Virus record (IMG/VR): IMGVR_UViG_3300024348_000005
Location: 1-64,000 of that record
Length of the DNA: 64,000 nt
Source: a virus
Direction: 5' to 3' (one strand)
In this document: positions 9,046-55,093 of the stretch, in pieces
Numbering within the stretch: position 1 is the first letter of the stretch
Layout of the letters: each line of letters starts with the position of its first letter
Program-made: the position numbers and the translations under genes
Notes under the pieces: generated by a model
Database searches by the model: none
Seen by the model: only the letters and a program-made list of their open reading frames with translations
What the model was told of the DNA's origin: nothing

Positions 9046-11919
9046 ATGGCAAATTCAAACAGAGTATTCGTTTCTCCAGGTGTCTACACATCTGAGAAGG
9101 ATCTAACATTCGTAGCACAAAGCGTCGGAGTAACAACATTGGGTTTAGTGGGTGAGACATTAAAAGGTCCAGCATTCGAACCAATTTTGATTACAGATTT
9201 CGACGAATTTAAAACATATTTTGGTGGTACTTCTCCTGAAAAGGATGGTAATTTAAACCCAAAATATGAACTTCCTTATGTTGCTAAATCTTACTTACAA
9301 GAGTCTAACCAATTATTCGTAACAAGAGTATTAGGTAAGACAGGATATAAACCAGAAAAAACTTTCGGAATTAAAACAATCGGAGGTATTACATTAGGGT
9401 CGTACAGTGGAGTGACAACAGGGTTATCTATGTCGGGTAACACCTTAGCAAATTTAACAGGTAGTACACTTTATTCTGAATTATCGGGTAAAACATCAAT
9501 AGACGGAGATTCAATCACTGACTATATTTTCAAAACATTCAGTGGATTTACAAGTGCAAACCATAACAATTGGTTTATCATGGGTGCTTTACCAACTGGA
9601 CAATCTGAACCAACAGGAACTGAATTGGTTTCACCTTTAACGGGTAAACAATACGCTGACAATGTTAATGGTAAAGAATGGTATAATTCATTAGTGTCAA
9701 GTAATAATAATGAAGTTTATTCATATAAATTTATTTACAATAGTGGAACAACTAAATTTGATGTAACAAAATATACATTTAATTCGAGTTTAAACGCTAA
9801 TTATAATGATGTAGTAGTTGCCGCGTTAAGACCAAGAGGTTATTATAGTGGTAATACTTTATTACATGAAGTAACAACAAATGGTTATTTTTCAGTAACA
9901 GAAGATGTTGATAATATTGAAATAAATCCAATGGGTGAGTTTGTAATTAATGTTACAGGTTCTACAGGAGGAGCTAAATCATACACATGTTCTTTAAATA
10001 CGACATCAACAAAATACATTACTAAAGTATTAGGTATTGATGTTTTTGATAAAAACAGAGGTGATTTCCCACTTTATGTACATGAGGTTTATCCTAAATT
10101 TTTAAAAGAATCTTTCGCAAGAGGATTGGTTAGAGGATTAAGTTTAACTGAAGTTTATGAAAGTGATGGTGATAATTTTATAAAATCTTGGGATACTACA
10201 TTATCACCAACGGTAGTTTCTGAAGTACGTGGTGGTAGAGTTTCTGATTTATTTGATGTTATTACAATATCAGATGGAGAAGCGGCAAACTTTCAAGTAA
10301 AATTAATGATTCAAAACATTAATATTGAGACGGGAGAATTTGATATCTTGGTTCGTGATTTTAACGATACTGACGAAAATCAAGTTATACTTGAGAAATA
10401 TTCAAGATGTTCTATGAATCCTGATTTACCGGGTTATGTTGCAAGAAAGGTAGGTACATCAGATGGTGAATATGAGTTACGTTCAAAGTATATCATGTTA
10501 TCTATGTATAGTAGTCACCCTACAGATGCATTTCCTGCAGGTTTTAAGGGTTTTAAAACAAATTCAAATTTCGGAGCGGGAGCTCAATTAGGTGATTTAT
10601 TATACAAAACAGATTACTACGATGCTGGTGATGTTATTACATACGATGCTGATGGTTCTGAAAATGTAGAAGCTGGAGATAAAATAAGAAAAGTTTCTTT
10701 AGGTCTTTCTTCTAAGATTGGTTTCGATAGAGATTTACTTAAAAATAAAGGATTAGGTGGTGACGGTGTAACACATGGTTTTCACTTATCAACAAACGCA
10801 TCTACAATAACAGGAGCAACCAATTCAGGTTTTGAATTTAAAACAACCCCTTATGATTTAGAGGGTCAATCAGGTACCGGTAATAAACTTACCACATTAG
10901 CAAACCGTAAATTCACGTTTGCAGTTTGTGGTGGATTTGATGGTTGGGATATCTACAGAAACGTAAGAACTTACGGTGATGGTTACATCTTTGGTAAATC
11001 AACATACACAAGTAACAACACAGATAATAGTGGTGTATTTAATGCAGATGTTGCCAACTCTGATTATTACGCTTACTTAGAAGGTATTGAAACATTTGCT
11101 AACCCTGAAGCTGTTGATATTAACGTATTCGCAACTCCGGGTATCGACTTTTTGAACCACAGTTCATTAGTTAATCAAGCAATCGATATGGTAGAAAACG
11201 AAAGAGCGGATTCATTATATATTATGAACGCTCCGGGACCTGAATTTATCACAACGGCGGACGATATTTCTGCAGAGGTTGATAACTTAGGTTTAGATTC
11301 TAACTATTCAGCAACATATTGGCCTTGGATTCAAGTAAGAGACACAGATAATGCAACACAACTTTACATCCCACCAACTGCGGAGGTTGTAAGAAACATT
11401 GCATTGACAGATAATGTATCATATCCTTGGTTCGCAGTAGCGGGTTATTCAAGAGGTATTGTTAACTCAATCAAAGCGTATAAGAAATTAACACTTGATG
11501 AAAGAGATAATTTATACAAAAACAGAATAAACCCAATCGCAACATTCTCTGATACGGGTACTATTATATGGGGTAACAAAACCTTACAAGTTAAAGAATC
11601 TGCACTTGATAGAATAAATGTAAGAAGATTGTTACTAAGAGCTAGAAAATTAATTTCTGCGGTAGCAATTAGATTATTATTTGAACAAAATGACGAACAG
11701 GTTAGAAATGAGTTCTTGAGATTGGTAAACCCAATTTTGGAATCAATTAAGAAGGAAAGAGGTCTTTACGAGTTCCGTGTATCAGTGTCCAATGACCCTG
11801 AAGATATAGATGCTAACACATTAAGAGGTAAGATTTATATCAAACCAACTCGTTCTCTTGAATTTATTGATGTGGAGTTCGTAATTACACCGACAGGTGC
11901 TTCATTTGAGAATATCTAA
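9046..11919 (+). CDS. Contractile tail sheath protein (gp18-like)
   Basis: FVSPGVYTSEKD, GETLKGPAFEP, YSATYWPW, PWFAVAGYSRG, RINPI, IWGNKTLQ, LDRINVRRLL, FEQND, IKPTRSLEFI. Confidence 0.97.
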   Translation: MANSNRVFVSPGVYTSEKDLTFVAQSVGVTTLGLVGETLKGPAFEPILITDFDEFKTYFGGTSPEKDGNLNPKYELPYVAKSYLQESNQLFVTRVLGKTGYKPEKTFGIKTIGGITLGSYSGVTTGLSMSGNTLANLTGSTLYSELSGKTSIDGDSITDYIFKTFSGFTSANHNNWFIMGALPTGQSEPTGTELVSPLTGKQYADNVNGKEWYNSLVSSNNNEVYSYKFIYNSGTTKFDVTKYTFNSSLNANYNDVVVAALRPRGYYSGNTLLHEVTTNGYFSVTEDVDNIEINPMGEFVINVTGSTGGAKSYTCSLNTTSTKYITKVLGIDVFDKNRGDFPLYVHEVYPKFLKESFARGLVRGLSLTEVYESDGDNFIKSWDTTLSPTVVSEVRGGRVSDLFDVITISDGEAANFQVKLMIQNINIETGEFDILVRDFNDTDENQVILEKYSRCSMNPDLPGYVARKVGTSDGEYELRSKYIMLSMYSSHPTDAFPAGFKGFKTNSNFGAGAQLGDLLYKTDYYDAGDVITYDADGSENVEAGDKIRKVSLGLSSKIGFDRDLLKNKGLGGDGVTHGFHLSTNASTITGATNSGFEFKTTPYDLEGQSGTGNKLTTLANRKFTFAVCGGFDGWDIYRNVRTYGDGYIFGKSTYTSNNTDNSGVFNADVANSDYYAYLEGIETFANPEAVDINVFATPGIDFLNHSSLVNQAIDMVENERADSLYIMNAPGPEFITTADDISAEVDNLGLDSNYSATYWPWIQVRDTDNATQLYIPPTAEVVRNIALTDNVSYPWFAVAGYSRGIVNSIKAYKKLTLDERDNLYKNRINPIATFSDTGTIIWGNKTLQVKESALDRINVRRLLLRARKLISAVAIRLLFEQNDEQVRNEFLRLVNPILESIKKERGLYEFRVSVSNDPEDIDANTLRGKIYIKPTRSLEFIDVEFVITPTGASFENI

Positions 11920-13729: not shown

Positions 13730-15649
13730 ATGGGATCAATATTAGAGGCACTTAGAAGTAGTGACCCAATTGGGGAATTACAGAAGATTAAAAATACTTA
13801 CGGGAACCGAGAAGATCAATTCAGAACTGATGTTAGGTCCGCAGTAAATACTTTTGGTGGAAATCGTCAATCGTCAACAACATCTGCGTCACCCGGATCA
13901 GGTATAGGTGGTAGTATTGCTAGTGGGCTAGCAGGGGCAATAAGTGCTTTTTCTTCCCAACAAACATCTCAATTTAATGAAAACGAAATCGTAGGTATTA
14001 GTAACCTATTAGAAATTATCAAAAAAGACGGTTTTAGTATAAAATCTATTTTTGAAACACTAAAATTAGGTGCGGTAGAAGTTGGAAATCAATTAAAAAG
14101 AGAGTCACAACTTAGAACCGATATTAATGAAAGTATTGGTATTGCCGGTAGGTTATCAAAAAGTTTAACAGACGATATTAATGATTCAGTTGCTGCGGGA
14201 ATTAGATTTGGTTATGGTATAGATCAAGTGAGAGACATGATTAAAGGTGTCATGGAGGAATCGGGTCGTTTTAATTTAATATCACAAAAAACTATTGAGA
14301 GTACATATGCAACCGCACGTGCATTTATTGGTGATTTGAAAGGTATGGGTCAAGCCATATCAGAATTTGAAAAAATTGGTATTGGTGCAAGTTCAGCAAC
14401 CAAAGCAATTGAAAGAGCGGGAAAGGGTTCTTTAGAATTAGGACTTTCAGGTAAAAAAACAACATCAGATTTAAGAGCAAATATTGAGAAACTAAATGAA
14501 TTTGGATTTAAAAATGGTATTCAAGGGTTAGCGGAAATGTCAAGAAAGGCAACCGAATTTAGAATTAATATGAGTGAAGCGTTTAAGATTGCAGAAAATG
14601 TTATGGACCCCGATAAAGCGATTGAATTAACGGCAAATTTACAAGTATTAGGTGGTGCAATTGGAGATTTTAACGACCCACTTAAGTTAATGTATATGGC
14701 AACAAACAATGTTGAAGGTTTACAAGATGCGTTAATTGAAGCTGCGGGTAGTTTAGCGGTTTATAATAGTGAACAAGGTAGGTTTGAAATAACAGGGATT
14801 AATTTAAGAAGAGCAAGAGAGATGGCAAAAACTCTTGGTATTGATTATAAAGAATTAACAAGAACGGCAATTGCATCACAAGAAAGACTTGCGGCAAGTA
14901 CCGCATTAATGGGTAAAGGTTTAAATTTAAAACCTGAAGATCAAGAATTCTTAACTAACCTATCAAGAATGGATGGTGGTAAAATTATTATTGACGTTCC
15001 AGAAAGTATACAGAAAAAATTAGGTATAGATACACAAGGTAAAGCGATAGAAGACTTATCAGAAGCTACCTTAAAATCTTTATTATTAAATAGAGAACAG
15101 TTTAAAGAAATGAGTGTTGAAGATATTGCAAGAGATCAATTAGATAATGTTGAAAACATTAGAAGGGACGTTGGAGCGTTAGTACAAATGCAGTTAAGAA
15201 ATGCCTCAAGATTAATTAGGGGAGGTATGGATGGTGAAAGTGGACTTGATAATATTACTAAAACGGCATTAGATAAACTTGAAAAATTTACTGCCGACAC
15301 ATTTAAAGAAAATCCCGATTTAATTAAATCAGGTATTGAAGGTGCACAAAAGTTAGTTAATGAATTTTTAAAGGACAATCCATTAATCGATGCAGCGGCA
15401 GAATATTTAGGAGACAAAGGAAAAGCTATAAAAACGGCCATTGATGAACAAATGAAAAAATATTTTGGTGGGGAATCTCCAACCACACAAACTCAAACAA
15501 CACAACCAACAACAACCACAAAAAATGTTAATTTAAACGTTGTCGTAGGAAATATCGGTGACCAACTAACAAATGAAATAATGAGAAGTCAAGGTGTTTG
15601 GAAAGATGTGCTAGGAAAATCTGATGCTAAAGACTATTTAACTCTTTAA
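13730..15649 (+). CDS. Tape measure protein
   Basis: 639 aa, helical and Ala/Gly/Leu-rich; AIELTANLQVLGG...DPLKLMY motif; follows the chaperone genes. Confidence 0.75.
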   Translation: MGSILEALRSSDPIGELQKIKNTYGNREDQFRTDVRSAVNTFGGNRQSSTTSASPGSGIGGSIASGLAGAISAFSSQQTSQFNENEIVGISNLLEIIKKDGFSIKSIFETLKLGAVEVGNQLKRESQLRTDINESIGIAGRLSKSLTDDINDSVAAGIRFGYGIDQVRDMIKGVMEESGRFNLISQKTIESTYATARAFIGDLKGMGQAISEFEKIGIGASSATKAIERAGKGSLELGLSGKKTTSDLRANIEKLNEFGFKNGIQGLAEMSRKATEFRINMSEAFKIAENVMDPDKAIELTANLQVLGGAIGDFNDPLKLMYMATNNVEGLQDALIEAAGSLAVYNSEQGRFEITGINLRRAREMAKTLGIDYKELTRTAIASQERLAASTALMGKGLNLKPEDQEFLTNLSRMDGGKIIIDVPESIQKKLGIDTQGKAIEDLSEATLKSLLLNREQFKEMSVEDIARDQLDNVENIRRDVGALVQMQLRNASRLIRGGMDGESGLDNITKTALDKLEKFTADTFKENPDLIKSGIEGAQKLVNEFLKDNPLIDAAAEYLGDKGKAIKTAIDEQMKKYFGGESPTTQTQTTQPTTTTKNVNLNVVVGNIGDQLTNEIMRSQGVWKDVLGKSDAKDYLTL

Positions 15650-36664: not shown

Positions 36665-38497
36665 ATGGCGAAAAAAATATCATACGCAACTAGAGATTTT
36701 GCGGGACTAAGACAAGAATTAGTTAATTTAACAAACGATTATTATCCCGATTTGGTAAAAAACACCAATGACGCATCAATATTTTCTGTGTTGTTAGATT
36801 TAAATGCTGCGGTTGCGGATAACTTACATTTTCATATTGACAGAGTTTTTCAGGAAACGATTTTAGATTTTGCACAACAAAGACAATCTTTATTTCATAT
36901 TGCTAAAACATATGGTATTAGAATACCAGGTGTAAGACCATCGGTGGCACTATGTGATTTTTCAGTTAATGTTCCGGTTCGTGGTGATAAAGAAGATGAA
37001 AGATATTTGGGAATTTTAAAAGGTGGAGCTCAAGTGTCAGGCGGAGGTCAGATATTTGAAACAATAGAAGATATAGATTTTTCTAATCCATTTAACAGTA
37101 AAGGAGAACCAAATAGATTAAAGATTCCAAATTTTGATAGTAACAATAGTTTAATATCATATACAATTACAAAAAGAGAGGCGGTAGTAAACGGAGTAAC
37201 AAGAATTTACAGAAGAGTAATCAATCAAGTTGACCAAAAACCATTTTTAAAACTTTTTTTACCAGAACAAAATGTTTTAGGTGTTGTTTCTATAATACAT
37301 AAAGATGGTACCACATTTGGAGCTAATCCAACATCAACAGAATTTACAACGTCAACCAATAAATGGTACGAAGTAAAATCGTTAATGCAAGATAAAGTGT
37401 TTATACCAAACACCACAAGTGTTTCAGATAAAAACAATTTCAAGGCAGGAGATTATGTACCAGTATCAAATAAGTTTTTAACCGAATATACTCCTGAAGG
37501 TTATTTTTCATTAACCTTTGGTTCAGGAACGGTTGACCCATTAGATAACTTGGATAACTACATTACTAGCAACATGAAAGTAAACATTGCTAGTTTTTTA
37601 AATAACATGTCGTTAGGTACAGTACCTAAAGTAAACTCAACAATATTCGTGAAATATCGAATTGGTGGGGGTAAAGATTCCAATTTAGGAGTTAATGTTA
37701 TAACAAGTGTGGATAGTGTCGAATTTAACATACAAGGTCCAAATTCAACTATTAACACACAGGTTGAGGATTCATTATCTGTGACAAATATCACACCAGC
37801 AATTGGTGGGGCGGACCAACCAACAATAGAAGAAATAAGAAATATGGTTGCTTATAATTTTGCAGCACAAAACAGAGCTGTAACGTTAAATGACTATAAA
37901 TCTTTAATAGAAACAATGCCATCTACATTCGGAGCACCGGCAAAGGTAAATGTGATGGAAGAAGATAATAAGGTAAGAATCAAATTATTATCATATGACG
38001 AAAATGGTAGTTTAACTGACACTGTATCCAATACATTAAAAAATAATATTTTAAATTATCTTTCTGAGTTTAGAATGATTAACGATTATTTGGATATTGT
38101 GAGTGGTGAGGTTATTGATATGGGTTTAGAAGTTGATTTAGTTATAGATAAAAATACATCACAAACAGACGTTATTAAGACGGCAATCGAAAATATTGTA
38201 GATTTCTTTGCAATTGAAAAACGTAAAATGGGAGATCCACTATTTGTTGGAGATTTGTCAAAATCCATTGGTAATGTGTCGGGAGTTGTGAACGTTGTAG
38301 ATTTAAGAGTTTTTGGAAAAATTGGTGGAGAATACTCATCATCCGAGGTTTCACAAAGTTACAAAGACAACGCAACGAAAGAAATACAACAAAGCGACAA
38401 CACTATATTCATGAAGTCAAATCAAATATTCCAAATTAGATTCCCTAATAAGGACATTAAGATAAGAATTAAAACCTTAGGAACGACTACATTTTAA
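36665..38497 (+). CDS. Baseplate wedge protein (T4 gp6/P2 gpJ-like)
   Basis: RDFAGLRQEL, LTFGSG, YRIGGG..SN, GGADQPTIEEIR, QNRAVTLNDY. Confidence 0.9.
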   Translation: MAKKISYATRDFAGLRQELVNLTNDYYPDLVKNTNDASIFSVLLDLNAAVADNLHFHIDRVFQETILDFAQQRQSLFHIAKTYGIRIPGVRPSVALCDFSVNVPVRGDKEDERYLGILKGGAQVSGGGQIFETIEDIDFSNPFNSKGEPNRLKIPNFDSNNSLISYTITKREAVVNGVTRIYRRVINQVDQKPFLKLFLPEQNVLGVVSIIHKDGTTFGANPTSTEFTTSTNKWYEVKSLMQDKVFIPNTTSVSDKNNFKAGDYVPVSNKFLTEYTPEGYFSLTFGSGTVDPLDNLDNYITSNMKVNIASFLNNMSLGTVPKVNSTIFVKYRIGGGKDSNLGVNVITSVDSVEFNIQGPNSTINTQVEDSLSVTNITPAIGGADQPTIEEIRNMVAYNFAAQNRAVTLNDYKSLIETMPSTFGAPAKVNVMEEDNKVRIKLLSYDENGSLTDTVSNTLKNNILNYLSEFRMINDYLDIVSGEVIDMGLEVDLVIDKNTSQTDVIKTAIENIVDFFAIEKRKMGDPLFVGDLSKSIGNVSGVVNVVDLRVFGKIGGEYSSSEVSQSYKDNATKEIQQSDNTIFMKSNQIFQIRFPNKDIKIRIKTLGTTTF

Positions 38498-46888: not shown

Positions 46889-47806
46889 ATGGCAGTAGGT
46901 AGTTACGGAATAATTAGACCCGCAGATGTGTCACCAGATGATGTAGAAATATTTTATCACTACGTTTCAGGAAGAACGTCAACCGCACCGGTTTCTCTAA
47001 AAACTTTAAACAGTTCTAGTGTTTTGACACCAGTTTATCATGGTAATGATACTACAGATGATACAAACGCCCCAAATTTGGAAGTTTTAGGAGGATTATA
47101 TAATTTAAAATTAGAATCTGCGGATTTCACGGACTTAGGAATATATACACTTCATGTAAGACCAAAACAAATAAGAACTACAATTACAGATTGTGGTGTG
47201 TTGGCGTCATTACCTTCAGTAAGAGGTTTAGTTATAGATTTAAGTAATGTTCCTTCTGGTGACAGAAGTAAATTTACCCCTCAAGGATTAATTGGATATA
47301 GAATAGAATATATAAACACTGAGAACAAAAAAGTAACAAACTTCTATAGATTAGTTACTTCATCGTTTTATTGTACACCTGTGGTTTCTAATTTATCTAG
47401 TACAACACAAAAGGCGATTAGATATCAATATAGTGATGCTGCAACGAATATGTTGTTTTTAACAGTAACACCATCGTCCGCACCATCAAGTAAACCAAAC
47501 ACAATTCCATTTATCGGTACACCGGGTCAAAAAATTATTTTTACCAATACATTTTTTAACCCAACAACGATTGAGGTTGAAATGGTTGAACATGACGCAT
47601 CAACATTGGCACATGCATTATATGGTAATCAAAGTAAGGCGGTTACACCGGGTATTTACACAATTTACGATAACAATAACAATATCTATAAACAATACAA
47701 CTTATACGAAATCAAAGACGACGTTAACGAAACATTATACGAAGTTAGAGAGAAGAGAACAGATATTGATGAAACTTTAAATTTTGATACAATTACCGAA
47801 TTATAA
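46889..47806 (+). CDS. Virion structural protein (305 aa)
   Basis: Late motif upstream; coupled to the next gene; beta-rich. Confidence 0.6.
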
Positions 47807-50800
47807 TGGCAAAATATAAAGTTCCAAGTCAGGCGGCTAATGGATCACAAACTTTTAGTGACAACTTAATCGGAGTTCAAATCACCGATGGTACTAGCCA
47901 ATTGACCAATACGAACTTTGCTCTTGATAAAACAATACCTGAAAGGGACGCTAAAAATTTTAAAACAAATCCGTTTTCGGATTTTTTAACTTTAGACGAT
48001 TTAAAAATTGAAGAGTCCGCTCCAATCACACAATCTAAATTAGAAAAAAATCAATCAGTTAAATTTAGAGATTCAAAAAAAGATTCAGGAAAATCATTAT
48101 ATGGTTCATTAAAAAGTAGAATTGGAGTCGCGGTTACAAAAATTATTAAGTTTTTTCCTGCCTCGGTTATGGTTGATATCGACTCACCAAAGAGTCAAAG
48201 TGGTCTAACTGCGTATAACATAACATATAATCAAAATACAAAAAGAACTAGATTAGATATTGAATTAGGAATGTTTTACAATCCATTCGATATTCTTTTT
48301 ACAAAACCAAATACAAACACAGTTGTTACTGTTGATAACCCAATTAGAAATTTCTATTCATCATATAAAAAATATGTAATTGAATTAAGTGGTGTTACAT
48401 ATAATATTGTTAGTTATGTTGAACCTAATACAAAAAATAAAATAACTCTAACGGTTTTAGGTAATCCATTCAATGGACAAACAACAACCACTAAAAATAT
48501 TTTAATTAGACCAAACGATGGTGTAAAGGAAGAATTTTTTATAGGACTTGATGATTTAGAATCATCATTATTAAATAGAGAAACACTACCAATTTACCAA
48601 TCAACATTTAAAGTACCAAGAGATATTAAGAATGGTTCGGTAACGAGTTTGTTAGATGTAAAATACAATTGGCCAATATCAAAAGACAATTACAATTTAC
48701 AAATTGTAGGTATTGGATATGATGAATATATTAATAATTTAATTGATGTTGCAGATGAAATTGATGAATATAAGTCTAACTTATTAGTTAGATTTTTATC
48801 TTCACCACAATTATTTGAATTTGATAGTGATGACAAAAAAGCGGAGTCTGTATTTCAATTATATGGACAAAGTTTTGACAAGGTAAAAAAATATATAGAC
48901 AATATTGCTTACATGAGAAATGTAAGTTATGATGGAGTTAATAACCTACCCGACATATTATTAAAAAATTTATCTAACACTTTAGGTTTAAGTACAATTA
49001 ATCTTTTTGATGAAAAGGATTTAAATGAACTTTTATATACAAGAACAGATACACAATATTCAGGATTAACGGTAGGAACCACTATCGTTGACGCAGAAAA
49101 TGAATTTTACAGAAGATTATTAGTTAATCTTTCATACATATACAAATCAAAAGGTACAAGGTCTTCAATTGAATTCTTTTTGAAATTCTTAGGAGCACCC
49201 GAACCTTTAATTAAGATTGATGAGTACGTCTATAATATAGTTTCATTACCAAAGTCATTTAACATTGATAGTGAAATTAGAAGTGTGATTATGGGTGATA
49301 AAACTGATTTAATAATTTCAGGATTCACACCGTCAACATATTCATACTCAACAGGTACAACATTAGCATCAACAACATACACTAGAGAGGAATACCCTGT
49401 TACAACTGACGGTTTACCAAGAGGATACAGTAGTGTTACTAATAATAATTTCTTTCAACAAGGTTCTGGTTGGTACGACATGACGTTAGACCATAGGTCT
49501 TCAACAACGTTAGATATTGAAAACTCAACAACAACAGGTAGAACAAAAACAATAAAAACAAAAAACAAACCATACACATATGGTGAAGAATATTTTGATA
49601 TTTTTAGATCATTACCGGGTTTAGATACGGGATTTGAAATCGTAAGTAAAGTTGACAACAATCAAAAACAAATTGTCAACAACAATTCAACTTTAATTCT
49701 TAATAGAAAAAATATTAGTGTTTATCTTTCATCCGCTAATGTGATGGATTTTGACATATATCGTAAATCTAGAGATTTGGAATTGTCATTTGGTTCTAAC
49801 ACATTGTTACCACAAACAGGTTATACGTTTGCTGAGTATGTTGATAGAATGTTACATGACCAAATTAGAAATTCACATGTAATAAAGTACAAAAAGAATT
49901 ACATCACCTTAGAGGATATACACCAAGATTATATTACTAATAGTAATTTTACTCCATATAATTTTCCAAGTGTAAATGAATTTGTAAATAAAATAGGACC
50001 ATATTGGACGCAGGTTTTAGACCAAGTAATCCCATCAACTACTTTATGGACAGGTGGTAACCTAATTCAAAATGGTATTTTTGGTAGACCAAAATATTCT
50101 TATAGATTTGGATGTAAACCAAAAGAAATTATTGAGAATGTTTATCCGAAACCAATTACATCGGGATATCAACCATTTCAAGATGAAATTGAACAATTTG
50201 ACGAATATTATGAATTTTCAACAGAAATAGATGAAACGGGTGAATCATCACATGATGGATATATAAGATTTTTTCCAACGTTTGAATTAGATGGTGTTTT
50301 GTTTAGTGGTAGTTCAAATAACTCAAGTACATATGTTTTAATATCAGGTAGCACACCAACAGCGACAAGTGCAAGGTTATATACAGGTAATGGAAATGAA
50401 ATTATTACAAATAATCCAAGTTTATACTCAAATGACTTTAATCAAATAAAACAATTATGGAAAAATGCAATAACAGGAACAACCGAATATATTAATACAT
50501 GTACCGATTGTTTATATTCTAGTTATACAACGGATTTATTTGGTAGAAACAATGAATATGCTGACGAAATTAGTTATTCAGGAATTTCAGGTTCAACACA
50601 GTATTTTAATGATTTTGGATATAGTCAAGGGTATGTTCCACTTCTAAAAAGTATTCGTAAAAAATTATTAACAGTTTCTTTTTTTACCGATAATAATGGT
50701 GAAGAAAAAATGAAAGTGACTTCGTTTTCGTATGGTCCAAATGATGGTACAATATGTAAAAGTTTTGTATTTGGTTTAGATGGTTTTGGTGATAATGATG

Positions 50801-53019
50801 CGTTTGATTGTAGATTTAGTGGTGGTACCGCGGTATATATTCCTGGACCAACTCCTACACCAACTGCAACTCCTACTCCTACCCCAACACCAACACCTAC
50901 TGCGACACCAACGGCAACACCAACACCAACCCCAACCCCTACACCGACTCCTACCGCAACACCAACGGCAACACCAACACCTACCGCAACACCAACGGTA
51001 ACTCCTACCCCTACACCTACTCCAGAATGTAACTTCGATGTTGAAGTAATTGTTGTAACGAATACACCAACACCAACTCCTACACCAACGCCAAATTGTA
51101 ACTTTGATGTAGAGGTAATTGTAGTAACTAACACCCCTACACCGACTCCTACTCCAACGCCAGATTGTAACTTCGATGTGGAGGTAGTTATTGTTACCAA
51201 CACACCAACACCAACCCCAACCCCTACACCAGATTGTAACTTCGATGTGGAAGTCGTTGTAGTAACGAACACCCCTACACCTACACCAACCCCTACACCA
51301 GATTGTAACTTCGATGTTGAAGTAATTGTTGTAACGAATACACCAACACCAACCGCAACACCTACGGAGACGCCAACTCCGACACCAACCGCAACACCAG
51401 ATTGTAACTTCGATGTTGAGGTAATTGTGGTTACAAATACCCCTACACCAACACCAACCCCAACTGAAACTCCTTTGGATTGTAATTTCGATGTTGAAGT
51501 AATTGTTGTAACAAATACCCCGACACCTACTCCAACCGCAACACCTACGGAAACACCAACACCAACCCCAACAGTAACACCTACACCAACTGCAACTCCT
51601 ACACCGACTCCTACACCAACTGCAACCCCAACTGCAACCCCTACTCCTACACCAGATTGTAACTTCGATGTTGAGGTAATTGTGGTTACAAATACACCAA
51701 CTCCAACTCCAACACCAACTGCAACTCCTTTGGATTGTAACTTCGATGTTAAGGTAATTGTGGTTACAAATACGCCAACTCCTACACCGACTCCGACGCC
51801 TGAAACACCTACTCCAACCCCTACCGCAACACCTACACCTACGCCAACACCTGAGACCCCAACTCCTACACCTACACCAACCGCAACTCCAACTGCAACA
51901 CCAACTGCAACACCTACCCCTACACCAACCGCAACTCCAACTGCAACACCAACTGCAACACCTACCCCTACTCCGGAATGTAATTTTAATGTTGAGGTAA
52001 TTATTGTTACAAATACTCCTACCCCAACTCCTACACCTACACCAACCGCAACACCAACTGCAACTCCTACACCTACACCAACCGCAACACCAACTGCTAC
52101 ACCGACACCTACACCAACTGCGACCCCAACTCCTACACCAACACCGGCAACACCGACACCTACACCGACTCCTACACCAACTGCAACCCCTACACCAACA
52201 CCAACAGTGGACGCTAATTTCTATTTCTTAGCAGAAAGATATGAGTGTTTAGAAAATGGTAGTTGTAGTTACGTTGAGGATGTGATTGTAATGAACCCTA
52301 TAGATTTATCAATTCACCCATCGTCGCCTCGTTACAGGTTAGACCCTACAACAGGATATATTTTAAGAATAATAACAGAGGTGTCGCCACAAATTGCATT
52401 AATTACAAATATGTCAGGAGGAGGTAGTGCAATCTGTAGTGCTTATTGTGATCAACCAACCCCAACTCCTACCCCAACACCTACACCTGCTACTCCTACC
52501 CCAACTCCTACACCTGCAACGCCTACCCCAACACCAACACCATTACCTGGTTCAGGGTATTATAATGGCGGATATGGTTGTCAATTCTATACTTATGACC
52601 CTGGATTCCCAACTTGTGATCCAAATGCCACTCCAACACCAACACCAACATTAACTCCGATATCACAATGTACACAATTAAATTGGTCATTTAGTGAAAT
52701 GAACGGAGCACAGGGTGTATTTGAGTTATATGTAAACTCAATACTTGTAGAAAGTAGAGCGTCAACTTCAAATGGAAGTTACACGGTTTGTCTTAATGAT
52801 ACAATAGAAGTTGAGGTGTTCTGTAATGCATGTGAAGATTCACCAAATGTACATTCAAACGCGTATTCAACATCTGATAAATTTGTATTAACAGACGCCG
52901 CGTGTACTCAGAATGGTACTGCATCTATGATAACAGGAACTTATACTGTGGTATCGGGTGATATTGGAACACCGTTTAGTGTAAATACATTCGCCGAATG
53001 TGAATATGGATGTTTATAA
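47806..53019 (+). CDS. Baseplate wedge/fibre-attachment protein (P2 gpI/T4 gp7-like) with long Pro/Thr and [10 protein letters not shown] repeat arm
   Basis: [13 protein letters not shown] and [28 protein letters not shown] (gpI-like); repeat arm ~50850-52660; Cys-rich C-terminal domains. Confidence 0.7.
50848..52660 (+). repeat. In-frame low-complexity array: (PT/PTA)n linkers interrupted by 10 copies of CNF(D/N)V(E/K)V(I/V)(V/I)VTNT
   Basis: Counted in the translation. DNA copies vary mainly at third codon positions. Confidence 0.95.
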
Positions 53020-53108
53020 AATACATTATCAATAAAAAATATAGAAAACTCTTTTTCCATAAAAAATAAAACAAAATAAACAGATATTTATAATAAAAAA
53101 AAGAAAAC

Positions 53109-53639
53109 ATGCAAGTAACATTTTATCTAACTCAGGCGTCAGCAAATACCGCCGCTGGACCTTTTAACATATCAGGAACAACATCGGGAGGTGCTGCGAA
53201 TACTGTAGAAATACAGGCGGGAGTGTCAAAGTCAACATTACTAGCGGGTTATACCGAAGAAATTGCCAATAACATAACAGGAGGTACCGTTACAAGTACA
53301 GGTGCAACATGTAACACAACTGATACATGGAGTATTAATGAATTGTATGTTACACCAACCCCAACCCCATCACCTGTACCATATGCTGAATATACCGGTT
53401 CTGGTTATGGAAGTAATGTTGGATCCGCATGTAACGATGCATCAACGGCCAATGGTGGTCTTGGTAGAACATTATATTCAGATTGTGAATCTTCCGAATT
53501 TGGTGTTAATTGTTATGTTTATTCAGACGATTTCGGTAATGCATTAACTGGATACAATAATGTATTCATGCACGCATCAAATTGGGATATTAGTTCGGTG
53601 ACAGGAAGGATAACCGCACTATCGTCAGAGCAATGTTAA
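53109..53639 (+). CDS. Small modular fibre/decoration protein (N-domain, PT linker, Cys-bounded domain)
   Basis: Own late motif at 53085; TPTPTPSP linker; ends in Cys. Confidence 0.7.
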   Translation: MQVTFYLTQASANTAAGPFNISGTTSGGAANTVEIQAGVSKSTLLAGYTEEIANNITGGTVTSTGATCNTTDTWSINELYVTPTPTPSPVPYAEYTGSGYGSNVGSACNDASTANGGLGRTLYSDCESSEFGVNCYVYSDDFGNALTGYNNVFMHASNWDISSVTGRITALSSEQC

Positions 53640-53665
53640 TTGGTGATTTAAAACTATACAATTTT

Positions 53666-53697
53666 AAAACCCCTTTATTATAAGGGGTTTTTTATTT
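53666..53697 (+). terminator. Intrinsic terminator (possibly bidirectional)
   Basis: AAAACCCCTT-TATTAT-AAGGGGTTTT followed by more T. Confidence 0.8.
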
Positions 53698-53725
53698 AAT
53701 TTATATCTAACAGTATTTATAGTAT

Positions 53726-55093
53726 ATGTCATTTTCAGTTAGAATAAGTGGAGTTACAATTGGGTTGTCGATATTAAACGTCAACATACAAGCCTGTTCC
53801 GATATAAACGGTTCAGTTGGATGTACAACCGTTGTAACAAACGTTCCGAGAGCGGGATTTCCGATGTTTGTTGATGTACCCGATAATACATATTCAGTAA
53901 AATTAGTTGCGTCGAATATTAATGATGGGGAAGATAGTAATGGAAATCTTTGTTCACCATCACCATTGGTAATTGCATTAAATAACAGACCAACACCGAC
54001 ACCTACAGCAACACCAACACCTACACCAACACCTACACCAACAGCAACACCAACACCAACAGCAACACCTACACCAACAGCAACACCAACAGCAACACCA
54101 ACAGCAACAGCAACCCCTACACCAACCCCAACACCAACGGCAACTCCTACACCAACACCTACGCCAACACCTACACCAACAGCAACGCCAACACCAACAG
54201 CAACTGAAACACCATATTATTTACAATTAAGTCGTTGTGATTCTGCACCAAACACAGTTACTGGTTGGACACTGAATACTTATACACAATCACAAATAAT
54301 GGTTGGTAATATATTCTTATCAGCCGGTGGTTACTATTATCAAGTTATTAACTATCAAACAGCACAACCAAACCCAGCGGGAATTATAGATGGTACTAAA
54401 GCGGGAGCACAATATCAAACATGTTCCGACACGCCTGGAGCCTATGTGGAACCACCAGATAATCCTGGTGTTAGTTTATTAATACATACTGGTCAAACAT
54501 TCAATAATAGTAGTACACCTTGTGCTATGTACGAGTCATCAATTGCAACAAATAGTGGTACAGTATACTTAAGTGGGCATACAATACCAGCAAATGGTGA
54601 CTACGCGTACACAACTGCGGTTTGTAATGAAACATATGCCGGAGATTCAAACTATTATGCTTCTCTTGCGAATAGTAGTAGATATGCGTTTACAATTGGA
54701 AGTGGTGGATATATTAATAACGTTGTTCAATGTGGTGTAATACCAACCGCAACGCCAACGCCAACCCCTAGTCCAACACCTACATCGGTAGTGTTATATG
54801 GAATATTTAGATCTACAGGATTATCGACTTTTAATGGTCATTGTAATAACAACTATGTAACCAATGCTCAATTCTATGGTCAAACAACATCACCTAATAG
54901 TTTATATGGAACCATTGTGTATGCAGATACAGAATATACACCATTTGACGGTGGTAGTTTATGGTATGCTTTAGGTAATGATAGTCAATCTAATACAAAT
55001 GATTTACCATACTATTCAATACAAATCATTAGTACTGGTGAGGTAACTAGTGTACAATATTTAACAAGTTGTTCTAGTGGTTCTCAAGCATAA
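53726..55093 (+). CDS. Modular fibre/adhesin protein with PT linkers and Cys-bounded domains
   Basis: N-domain, ~70 aa PT tract, then three small Cys-bounded domains; own late motif at 53714. Confidence 0.7.

Follow-up and report, generated by a model that had tools for sequence, protein, structure and literature searches.

The 64,000-nucleotide stretch of viral DNA analysed here (positions 1 to 64,000 of IMG/VR record IMGVR_UViG_3300024348_000005), called the window below, is part of a large contractile-tailed phage genome. It encodes a tail sheath protein (9046-11919) and a Baseplate_J/gp6-like protein (36665-38497), together with a DNA polymerase, helicases and a ribonucleotide reductase. 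A series of unnamed structural genes lies 3' of the Baseplate_J gene, and the last of these is an open reading frame (ORF) of 1737 aa (47806-53019, plus strand); genes for proteins of 176, 455 and 715 aa follow, and then a RuvC-like gene. From its reading frame, its IMG/VR relatives and its synteny, the 1737-aa product is described as a baseplate-region structural protein with a body, a Pro-Thr (PT) stalk and three distal modules. The stalk carries ten copies of a short, Cys-led peptide, and these peptides are the subject of this report.

The body (47806-50850, about 1015 aa) is 48-95% identical across loci L001-L080, where L-numbers denote loci of IMG/VR relatives taken with 10 kb on either side and G-numbers the records behind them. 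It ends in a Cys-led strand (D-C-R-F-S-G-G...) immediately 5' of the stalk, and homologues that have stalks keep this terminal strand as D-C-x-[FL]. Segmentation delimits a first PT linker of 56 aa (50851-51018), encoded by hexanucleotide-type repeats, and another of 61 aa (52018-52200) beyond the array. The array itself (51028-52017, plus strand), as delineated by pattern search, Tandem Repeats Finder and substitution analysis, has ten units of 39 nt, with Cys codons at 51028, 51097, 51166, 51235, 51304, 51403, 51481, 51658, 51736 and 51979. All ten fit the 13-residue pattern C-N-F-[DN]-V-[EK]-V-[IV]-[IV]-V-T-N-T, and they are set apart by Pro/Thr spacers of 10 to 68 residues. Tandem Repeats Finder reports a 69-bp (23-aa) unit and a higher-order unit of 255 bp. 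The first five copies stand in exact 69-bp register, with the remaining spacers 13-68 aa long; two "pair" units derive from the 255-bp duplication, and the tenth copy stands alone.

Over the 45 pairs of copies there are 216 synonymous codon differences and 50 non-synonymous ones, which correspond by the NG86 method to 0.041 non-synonymous (dN) and 1.00 synonymous (dS) substitutions per site. The peptide is under strong purifying selection; it is the peptide that is conserved, and not the DNA. A preliminary description of this locus had reported ten near-identical Cys peptides with the first Cys at 51028 and the last at 51979, each amounting to about one β-strand with a single Cys, isolated by Pro/Thr spacers of variable length, and kept as protein while the DNA changes at synonymous sites. 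Each of these observations was borne out, the last of them far beyond chance.

The ten copies belong to a larger family. A pattern of the form [DN]-C-x-F-x-V-x-V-x-V-V-T describes 136 copies from 15 related viral loci, with Cys invariant (136/136); Phe occupies +2 in 132 of them, Val or Ile fills +4 in 132, +8 in 132 and +6 in 118, +10 is Thr in 117, and the residue before the Cys is Asp or Asn in 131. The even positions of this unit of about 11 residues (C, F, V, V, V, T) make up one invariant hydrophobic face that includes the Cys, while the odd positions are acidic or polar and lineage-specific, one lineage having four Asp per strand. PT spacers of about 10 residues or more adjoin the unit in every case. 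Copies within a genome have 0.76-0.78 identity to one another, whether drawn from the same gene or from different genes, compared with 0.53 between genomes. For copies in two different genes of L001-L004, dS reaches 0.8-1.6, which is saturating, and dN is 0.04-0.12; over the same four loci, dS between the body and that of the window is 0.31-0.66 (0.31-0.40 for L001 and L004). Constraint that is at once sequence-specific and lineage-specific points to a specific contact, be it of the strand with itself or with some partner.

Within one genome the same strand variant recurs in several unrelated stalk proteins, and the stalks that bear the unit belong to at least three families of body or anchor. 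Complete ORFs hold from 1 to 13 copies, odd and even numbers alike, another body family has up to 18, and some stalks have no unit at all, so that the unit is to be viewed as an optional element of the stalk. Variation in copy number between relatives had been anticipated in the preliminary description, and the observed range is 0 to 18. The family pattern matched 19 IMG/VR stretches, whereas a search of bacterial and archaeal genomes totalling 596 Gb gave no hit; as far as these sequence searches reach, the unit is phage-specific, found only in phages. Literature searches for a phage stalk of the Pro-Thr/Cys-strand kind found nothing relevant, and the strand appears to be undescribed in the literature searched.

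The first 1014 residues of the 1737-aa protein have 201 relatives in IMG/VR, on contigs of up to 316 kb. Gene order around them is conserved, running through 519-like, 393-like and 305-like genes to the big protein, then a variable set of genes, a 715-like gene and RuvC. The variable set consists of genes that join an N-domain, a PT stalk and further modules. The 1737-aa protein matches no Pfam family at E <= 0.1, and neither it nor the 176-, 455- and 715-aa proteins have a named family in Pfam, NCBIfam, PHROGs or a PDB profile search, the 715-aa protein giving only a sub-threshold match to Prophage_tailD1. A match of the 1737-aa protein to the T4 gp7 / P2 gpI family was absent from Pfam, NCBIfam, PHROGs (which returned an unnamed family only) and the PDB profile search, and the INPHARED phage collection yielded nothing similar to the body at the DNA or the protein level. 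An Atlas score of 0.86 to a cluster with PF23786 in 17% of its members is a lead only. The 1737-aa protein is assigned provisionally to the baseplate module, from its synteny with the Baseplate_J gene and this weak Atlas lead.

In a distant clade of relatives (L045, L050, L053 and L058-L065) the homologue of the big protein ends at about 1413 aa, exactly at F-[DG]-C (near locus position 14240), the point that corresponds to the start of the stalk in the window. Some 90 nt 3' of that stop begins a giant ORF of 2700-2860 aa, whose product has an N-domain of 63 aa and then a Pro/Thr/Ser/Val stalk of over 1400 aa that lacks Cys-led strands. This two-ORF arrangement could be a split form of the same architecture.

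The next two genes of the window were previously described as each encoding an N-domain of about 80 aa, with 1 and 3 Cys respectively, then a PT linker and variable Cys modules, and this organization is confirmed. The 176-aa protein (53109-53639, plus strand) consists of an FN3-like N-domain (residues 1-80, with a lone conserved Cys68), a 10-aa PT linker and a C-domain with four Cys; 222 homologues keep the N-domain, and the C-domain varies. The 455-aa protein (53726-55093, plus strand) has an 88-aa N-domain (Cys 24, 33 and 76), conserved in L001, L010, L015 and L024, a 75-aa PT stalk (53990-54214) free of strand units, and Cys-containing modules; it matches PHROG 15511 and PHROG 21885, both of unknown function.

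An AlphaFold2 model of the 176-aa protein, made from a 47-sequence alignment, has a mean predicted local distance difference test (pLDDT) score of 85.5, and in it residues 1-80 form a six-stranded sandwich (pLDDT about 75-88). This N-domain superposes on many FN3 domains (VIA Z 6.0-7.1, root-mean-square deviation 2.5-3.4 Å over 70-75 residues), in alignments that mostly skip the first 15 or so residues of the targets and so leave room for an open edge, and its Atlas structure row gives TM 0.62 to an fn3 cluster. As modelled, the domain is an FN3-like two-sheet sandwich, a resemblance at the level of fold only, the Pfam fn3 family not being matched; a Foldseek search of the PDB with the whole 176-aa model found nothing at E <= 0.001. 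Domains of the 53109 type were also seen inside PT stalks, at L055 16496-18604 and at L087 559-3120 (G006, minus strand). These internal copies are bounded by a Cys right after the PT linker, where N-terminal copies have Met1, and by the conserved late Cys, and they otherwise have the same first strand. Since the two forms differ in this alone, no strand would seem to be missing from the N-domain, the lone Cys68 would be the leftover half of a module-closing pair, and the domain would be a mobile Cys-clamped module and not just an N-terminal anchor. The idea that only the internal copies have an extra, Cys-led first strand was ruled out, as the register of the hidden Markov model (HMM) shows the first strand in both forms. 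A search for longer proteins holding the 53109 N-domain found none, which is weak evidence. Across anchor domains of several families, 35 of 37 have a Cys 3-16 residues before the stalk, strand-free genomes included, and in single-Cys N-domains it is unpaired; this pre-stalk Cys probably has an intermolecular partner, not necessarily the strand.

Our tentative preference is to regard the ten peptides as a phage-specific, Cys-led amphipathic β-strand that acts as a self-associating structural rung of the Pro-Thr stalk. The unit would then be a building block of the PT stalks of baseplate-attached adhesins in a clade of uncultured large myoviruses. Strands would pair with each other, either as neighbouring copies in one chain or as the same copies on sister chains or stalks, burying their hydrophobic faces and possibly cross-linking through Cys. 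Floppy stretches of PT linker would thereby condense into a structured rod resembling a β-solenoid or cross-β stack, and recombination in the repetitive DNA could quickly change copy number and spacer length, tuning the length and stiffness of the stalk. The 53109 and 53726 products would be separate, exchangeable adhesins, whose conserved N-domains anchor them to a conserved site on the baseplate and not to the strands.

Several observations speak for self-association. An AlphaFold2 run in single-sequence mode on the translation of window 50980-51531, which holds seven units, folded each unit as a 7-residue strand within one compact stack, with a predicted template modelling score of 0.66 and pLDDT of 67.5 overall, 71-77 over the five units in 23-aa register and lower elsewhere. 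The nearest solved shapes to this model are β-solenoids, namely SufB/SufD-type (VIA Z 12.2), curli CsgA (Z 11.5-11.8), RTX (Z 10.7) and a Ca2+-dependent antifreeze protein, with the reservation that repeats reach such Z scores easily. Spacers are never shorter than about the length of a strand. The uniformity of copies within a genome counts in the same direction because self-matching rungs would produce exactly such uniformity, as do the selection on the peptide, the pattern of its buried face, the presence of the unit in several stalk families and its optional nature there, and the occurrence of N-domains independently of strands.

A number of points weigh against this preference. The array was modelled without an alignment, three of the five models have pLDDT of only 40-46, and AlphaFold2 tends to over-predict solenoids for repeats. 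Copies separated by spacers of 46-80 residues and solitary copies, such as the tenth in the window and the single one in the second gene of L008, cannot stack in cis. In-register stacking would align ladders of Asp and Glu, with up to four Asp per strand, and these would repel one another unless cations bind. The Cys content shows no bias toward even numbers (27 of 68 stalk proteins are even), so pairwise intrachain disulfides are not the rule, a result that argues neither for nor against pairing in trans. If every copy bound one and the same partner, uniformity within a genome would be expected just as much. Self-association is argued from a single-sequence model and from sequence patterns.

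A common partner is what the preliminary description had proposed: each strand would be a docking site at which the N-domain of a separate adhesin (53109 or 53726) binds by β-strand addition and is locked by a disulfide, giving a branched, cellulosome-like tree whose valency follows the copy number. In a related plug-in variant, the strand captures the FN3-like N-domain beside its first strand and bonds the lone Cys at the start of its last strand, and adhesins that bear strands themselves extend the tree. The strand does have the look of a donor strand, with alternating buried hydrophobics and the Cys on that face; the pre-stalk Cys of the N-domains would offer a bonding partner, many stalk proteins have odd Cys totals, and variants that are lineage-specific yet uniform within an array fit co-evolution with a partner. 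Strands and 53109-type domains also tend to coincide, with both in 13 of the loci, neither in 17 and one only in 4, figures confounded by phylogeny and locus ends; phylogeny, and the fact that some loci stop within a giant stalk gene, make the raw association largely artefactual. A six-frame search found the 53109-type N-domain, at 37-50% identity, in the records behind L076, L061, L063, L064 and L030. Those behind L076 and L061 (G001 and G002; 234 and 233 kb, an estimated 70-76% complete) have the domain with its Cys and no strand array: a pattern scan of the whole records found the strand only at the level of a reversed-pattern control, whereas the same scan gave 15 and 7 copies in two strand-bearing records. 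The sister records G006 and G007 likewise have the N-domain and no strand within their 10-kb flanks. By the preliminary description's own standard, a failure of strand and partner family to co-occur across genomes would count against docking, and in part this is what was observed. Moreover, in L001, L002, L003, L004, L008 and L016 the strand sits in stalks of smaller proteins that begin with an anchor-type N-domain and should be the partners (L001 12043-13995, L003 8448-10094, L004 14684-16987 and others), and elsewhere in stalks that follow a different kind of body, where it reaches 18 copies, while the stalk of the 455-aa protein has none. Finally, the model of the N-domain shows an FN3-like fold that is complete and autonomous (pLDDT about 80), with its own first strand in place. 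On sequence comparison, the evidence leans against docking. We consider docking at neighbouring N-domains unlikely in the form first proposed, and the plug-in variant is likewise improbable. What survives of the earlier interpretation is a real, selected repeat of varying copy number with modular neighbours; docking to their N-domains is the part that is disfavoured.

A partner might instead be sought on the host. The strands could be multivalent adhesive or cation-binding elements, which add as a β-zipper to a host protein or engage Ca2+ or polysaccharide through the acidic face, and so lend avidity ahead of engagement by the distal modules. In favour are an exposed face that is acidic and varies between lineages, with as many as four Asp per strand, as would be expected of a surface that follows a host-specific ligand, and the placement of the arrays among hypervariable adhesin genes in the host-facing cassette. 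In one relative (L016 15300-16115), a stalk protein has a distal module that matches the SprB repeat (PF13573, E 8.7e-07, a value slightly over the cut-off); this repeat is known from adhesins of gliding Bacteroidota, and the match may hint at the host group. We nevertheless doubt this account, as each copy has a free Cys on its buried face that would be hard to keep reduced on an extracellular virion, and the search of 596 Gb of cellular genomes found no such strand to suggest a homotypic host partner. It is very unlikely that the strands are sites of covalent modification or processing, for example a thiol cross-link to a virion component, a thioether with the Thr-rich tract, or cleavage at [DN]-C: no modifying enzyme was identified in the window, and conservation takes in the whole 11-residue hydrophobic pattern and not merely the [DN]-C step, even though that step is nearly invariant (131 of 136) and the short body homologues end exactly at F-[DG]-C. 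Most improbable is that the repeat is a by-product of slippage or recombination in PT-coding DNA with a role in spacing only. That DNA is indeed highly repetitive, copy number differs among close relatives, and some stalks lack the unit, but a dN/dS ratio near 0.04 where dS is saturated, seen across several genes and genomes, and an invariant Cys and near-invariant Phe across lineages whose bodies are about 50% identical, are not what such a by-product would leave, and the selection signal already disfavours it.

The system fits best among the modular, PT-linked adhesins of phages, as a variant of them. It resembles the modular receptor-binding proteins of phages, branched complexes among them (CBA120 TSP1-4, G7C gp63.1/gp66 and those of phiKp24), in having a hypervariable adhesin cassette beside the baseplate genes, conserved N-domains and shuffled C-terminal modules. 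Branching in known phages uses contacts between folded domains, and is not known to use short orphan strands in Pro-Thr linkers; searches of Pfam, PHROGs and PDB profiles found no sequence or profile match of the window proteins to branched receptor-binding proteins. With β-solenoids such as curli CsgA (8c50, 8enq), the RTX β-roll and the antifreeze protein MpAFP (3p4g), the array shares a short unit, about 23 aa in the tight register; its identical residues would stack as ladders, its AlphaFold2 model aligns to such folds at Z 9-12, and its acidic positions recall Ca2+-dependent solenoids. It differs from them in having one strand per unit, a Pro-Thr return path, irregular spacers of 10-68 aa and no sequence similarity, and the confidence of the model is low to moderate. 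As in the donor-strand complementation of chaperone-usher pili (Fim, Pap, Saf), the amphipathic strand could fill the groove of an Ig-like acceptor. Unlike in those pili, where donor and acceptor always occur together, the candidate acceptor is modelled as self-sufficient with its own first strand, G001 and G002 have it without the donor array, and there is no chaperone or usher.

The likeness to a cellulosomal scaffoldin lies in a long protein with repeated units on Pro/Thr-rich linkers, adjoined by modular proteins with a conserved terminal domain. A cohesin, however, folds as a domain of some 140 aa, and a dockerin is a Ca2+-binding module with duplicated loop-helix elements, whereas the repeat here is a strand of 11-13 aa; Pfam detected no cohesin in the 1737-aa protein and no dockerin in the 176- and 455-aa proteins. 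Mucin PTS domains with CysD, and cellulase Pro-Thr boxes, offer a further comparison. Mucins too have long Pro/Thr stalks broken at intervals by Cys elements, which may cross-link or stiffen the polymer, but CysD folds as a Cys-rich domain of about 110 aa, and the present element is a single strand with one Cys, found only in phages. Tandem β-zipper repeats of staphylococcal FnBPA bind the F1 modules of fibronectin. They resemble the strands as short repeated elements in a disordered region that could add to the sheets of a partner for multivalent binding, and differ from them in being 35-40 aa long, lacking Cys and binding a host protein.

Folded fibres and spikes are the usual explanation of how phages recognise their hosts. 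In the clade of large uncultured phages considered here, the host-facing proteins are built on Pro-Thr stalks that resemble those of mucins and are set with a tiny, strongly selected strand that is found only in phages. If the strands self-assemble, a 23-residue unit that expands and contracts in number by recombination would give the virus rods whose length and stiffness can be adjusted, and this would be a simple design principle for protein engineering. If the strands dock other proteins instead, branched adhesin arrays would be assembled in a new way, on a new principle of virion assembly. On either reading the unit is a compact, easily recognised marker by which stalk proteins may be annotated in metagenomic phage genomes, and it is tractable for peptide biophysics.

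Beyond the second PT linker, the 1737-aa protein continues with three distal modules on the plus strand. The first (52201-52461, about 87 aa, four Cys) has a 49%-identical counterpart in the L024 homologue. Next comes a mini-module of about 31 aa with two Cys (52540-52632), which recurs in the second genes of L001, L002, L003 and L004; beginning L-P-G-S-G-Y-Y, it is nearly unchanged across different stalk proteins and genomes, including those at L001 12043-13995, L003 8448-10094 and L004 14684-16987. Its presence in different stalk proteins and genomes indicates frequent shuffling of modules across PT linkers. The C-terminal module (52651-53016, 122 aa, seven Cys) matches no Pfam family. A vWA-like D-x-S-x-S motif spotted by eye in the tail of L004 gained no confirmation from Pfam. 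The PT-coding tract is also overlapped by ORFs of 70-215 aa, at 50625-51272 on the minus strand and at 50780-51001, 51758-52000, 52004-52231 and 52427-52654 on the plus strand; these Gly/Val-rich or His/Gln/Leu-rich frames are read-throughs of the hexanucleotide repeats and almost certainly not genes.

Each of the two small adhesin genes has, as noted before, a motif of its own upstream: TATTTATA lies 24 nt before the start of 53109 and 12 nt before that of 53726. Its positions 53085, 53714, 55107 and 57289, together with 13719, 15667 and 27893, fall 11-46 nt upstream of seven plus-strand ORF starts, which include 53109, 53726, 55119 and 57306. These seven are drawn from 11 occurrences in the window, a total near the shuffled expectation of 8.3. 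From its placement, TATTTATA may be an element that resembles a late promoter. The interval between genes 53109 and 53726 contains a GC-rich hairpin and, after it, a T-run (53666-53693, plus strand); as the sequence reads, this looks like an intrinsic terminator, so that the two genes may be separate transcription units.

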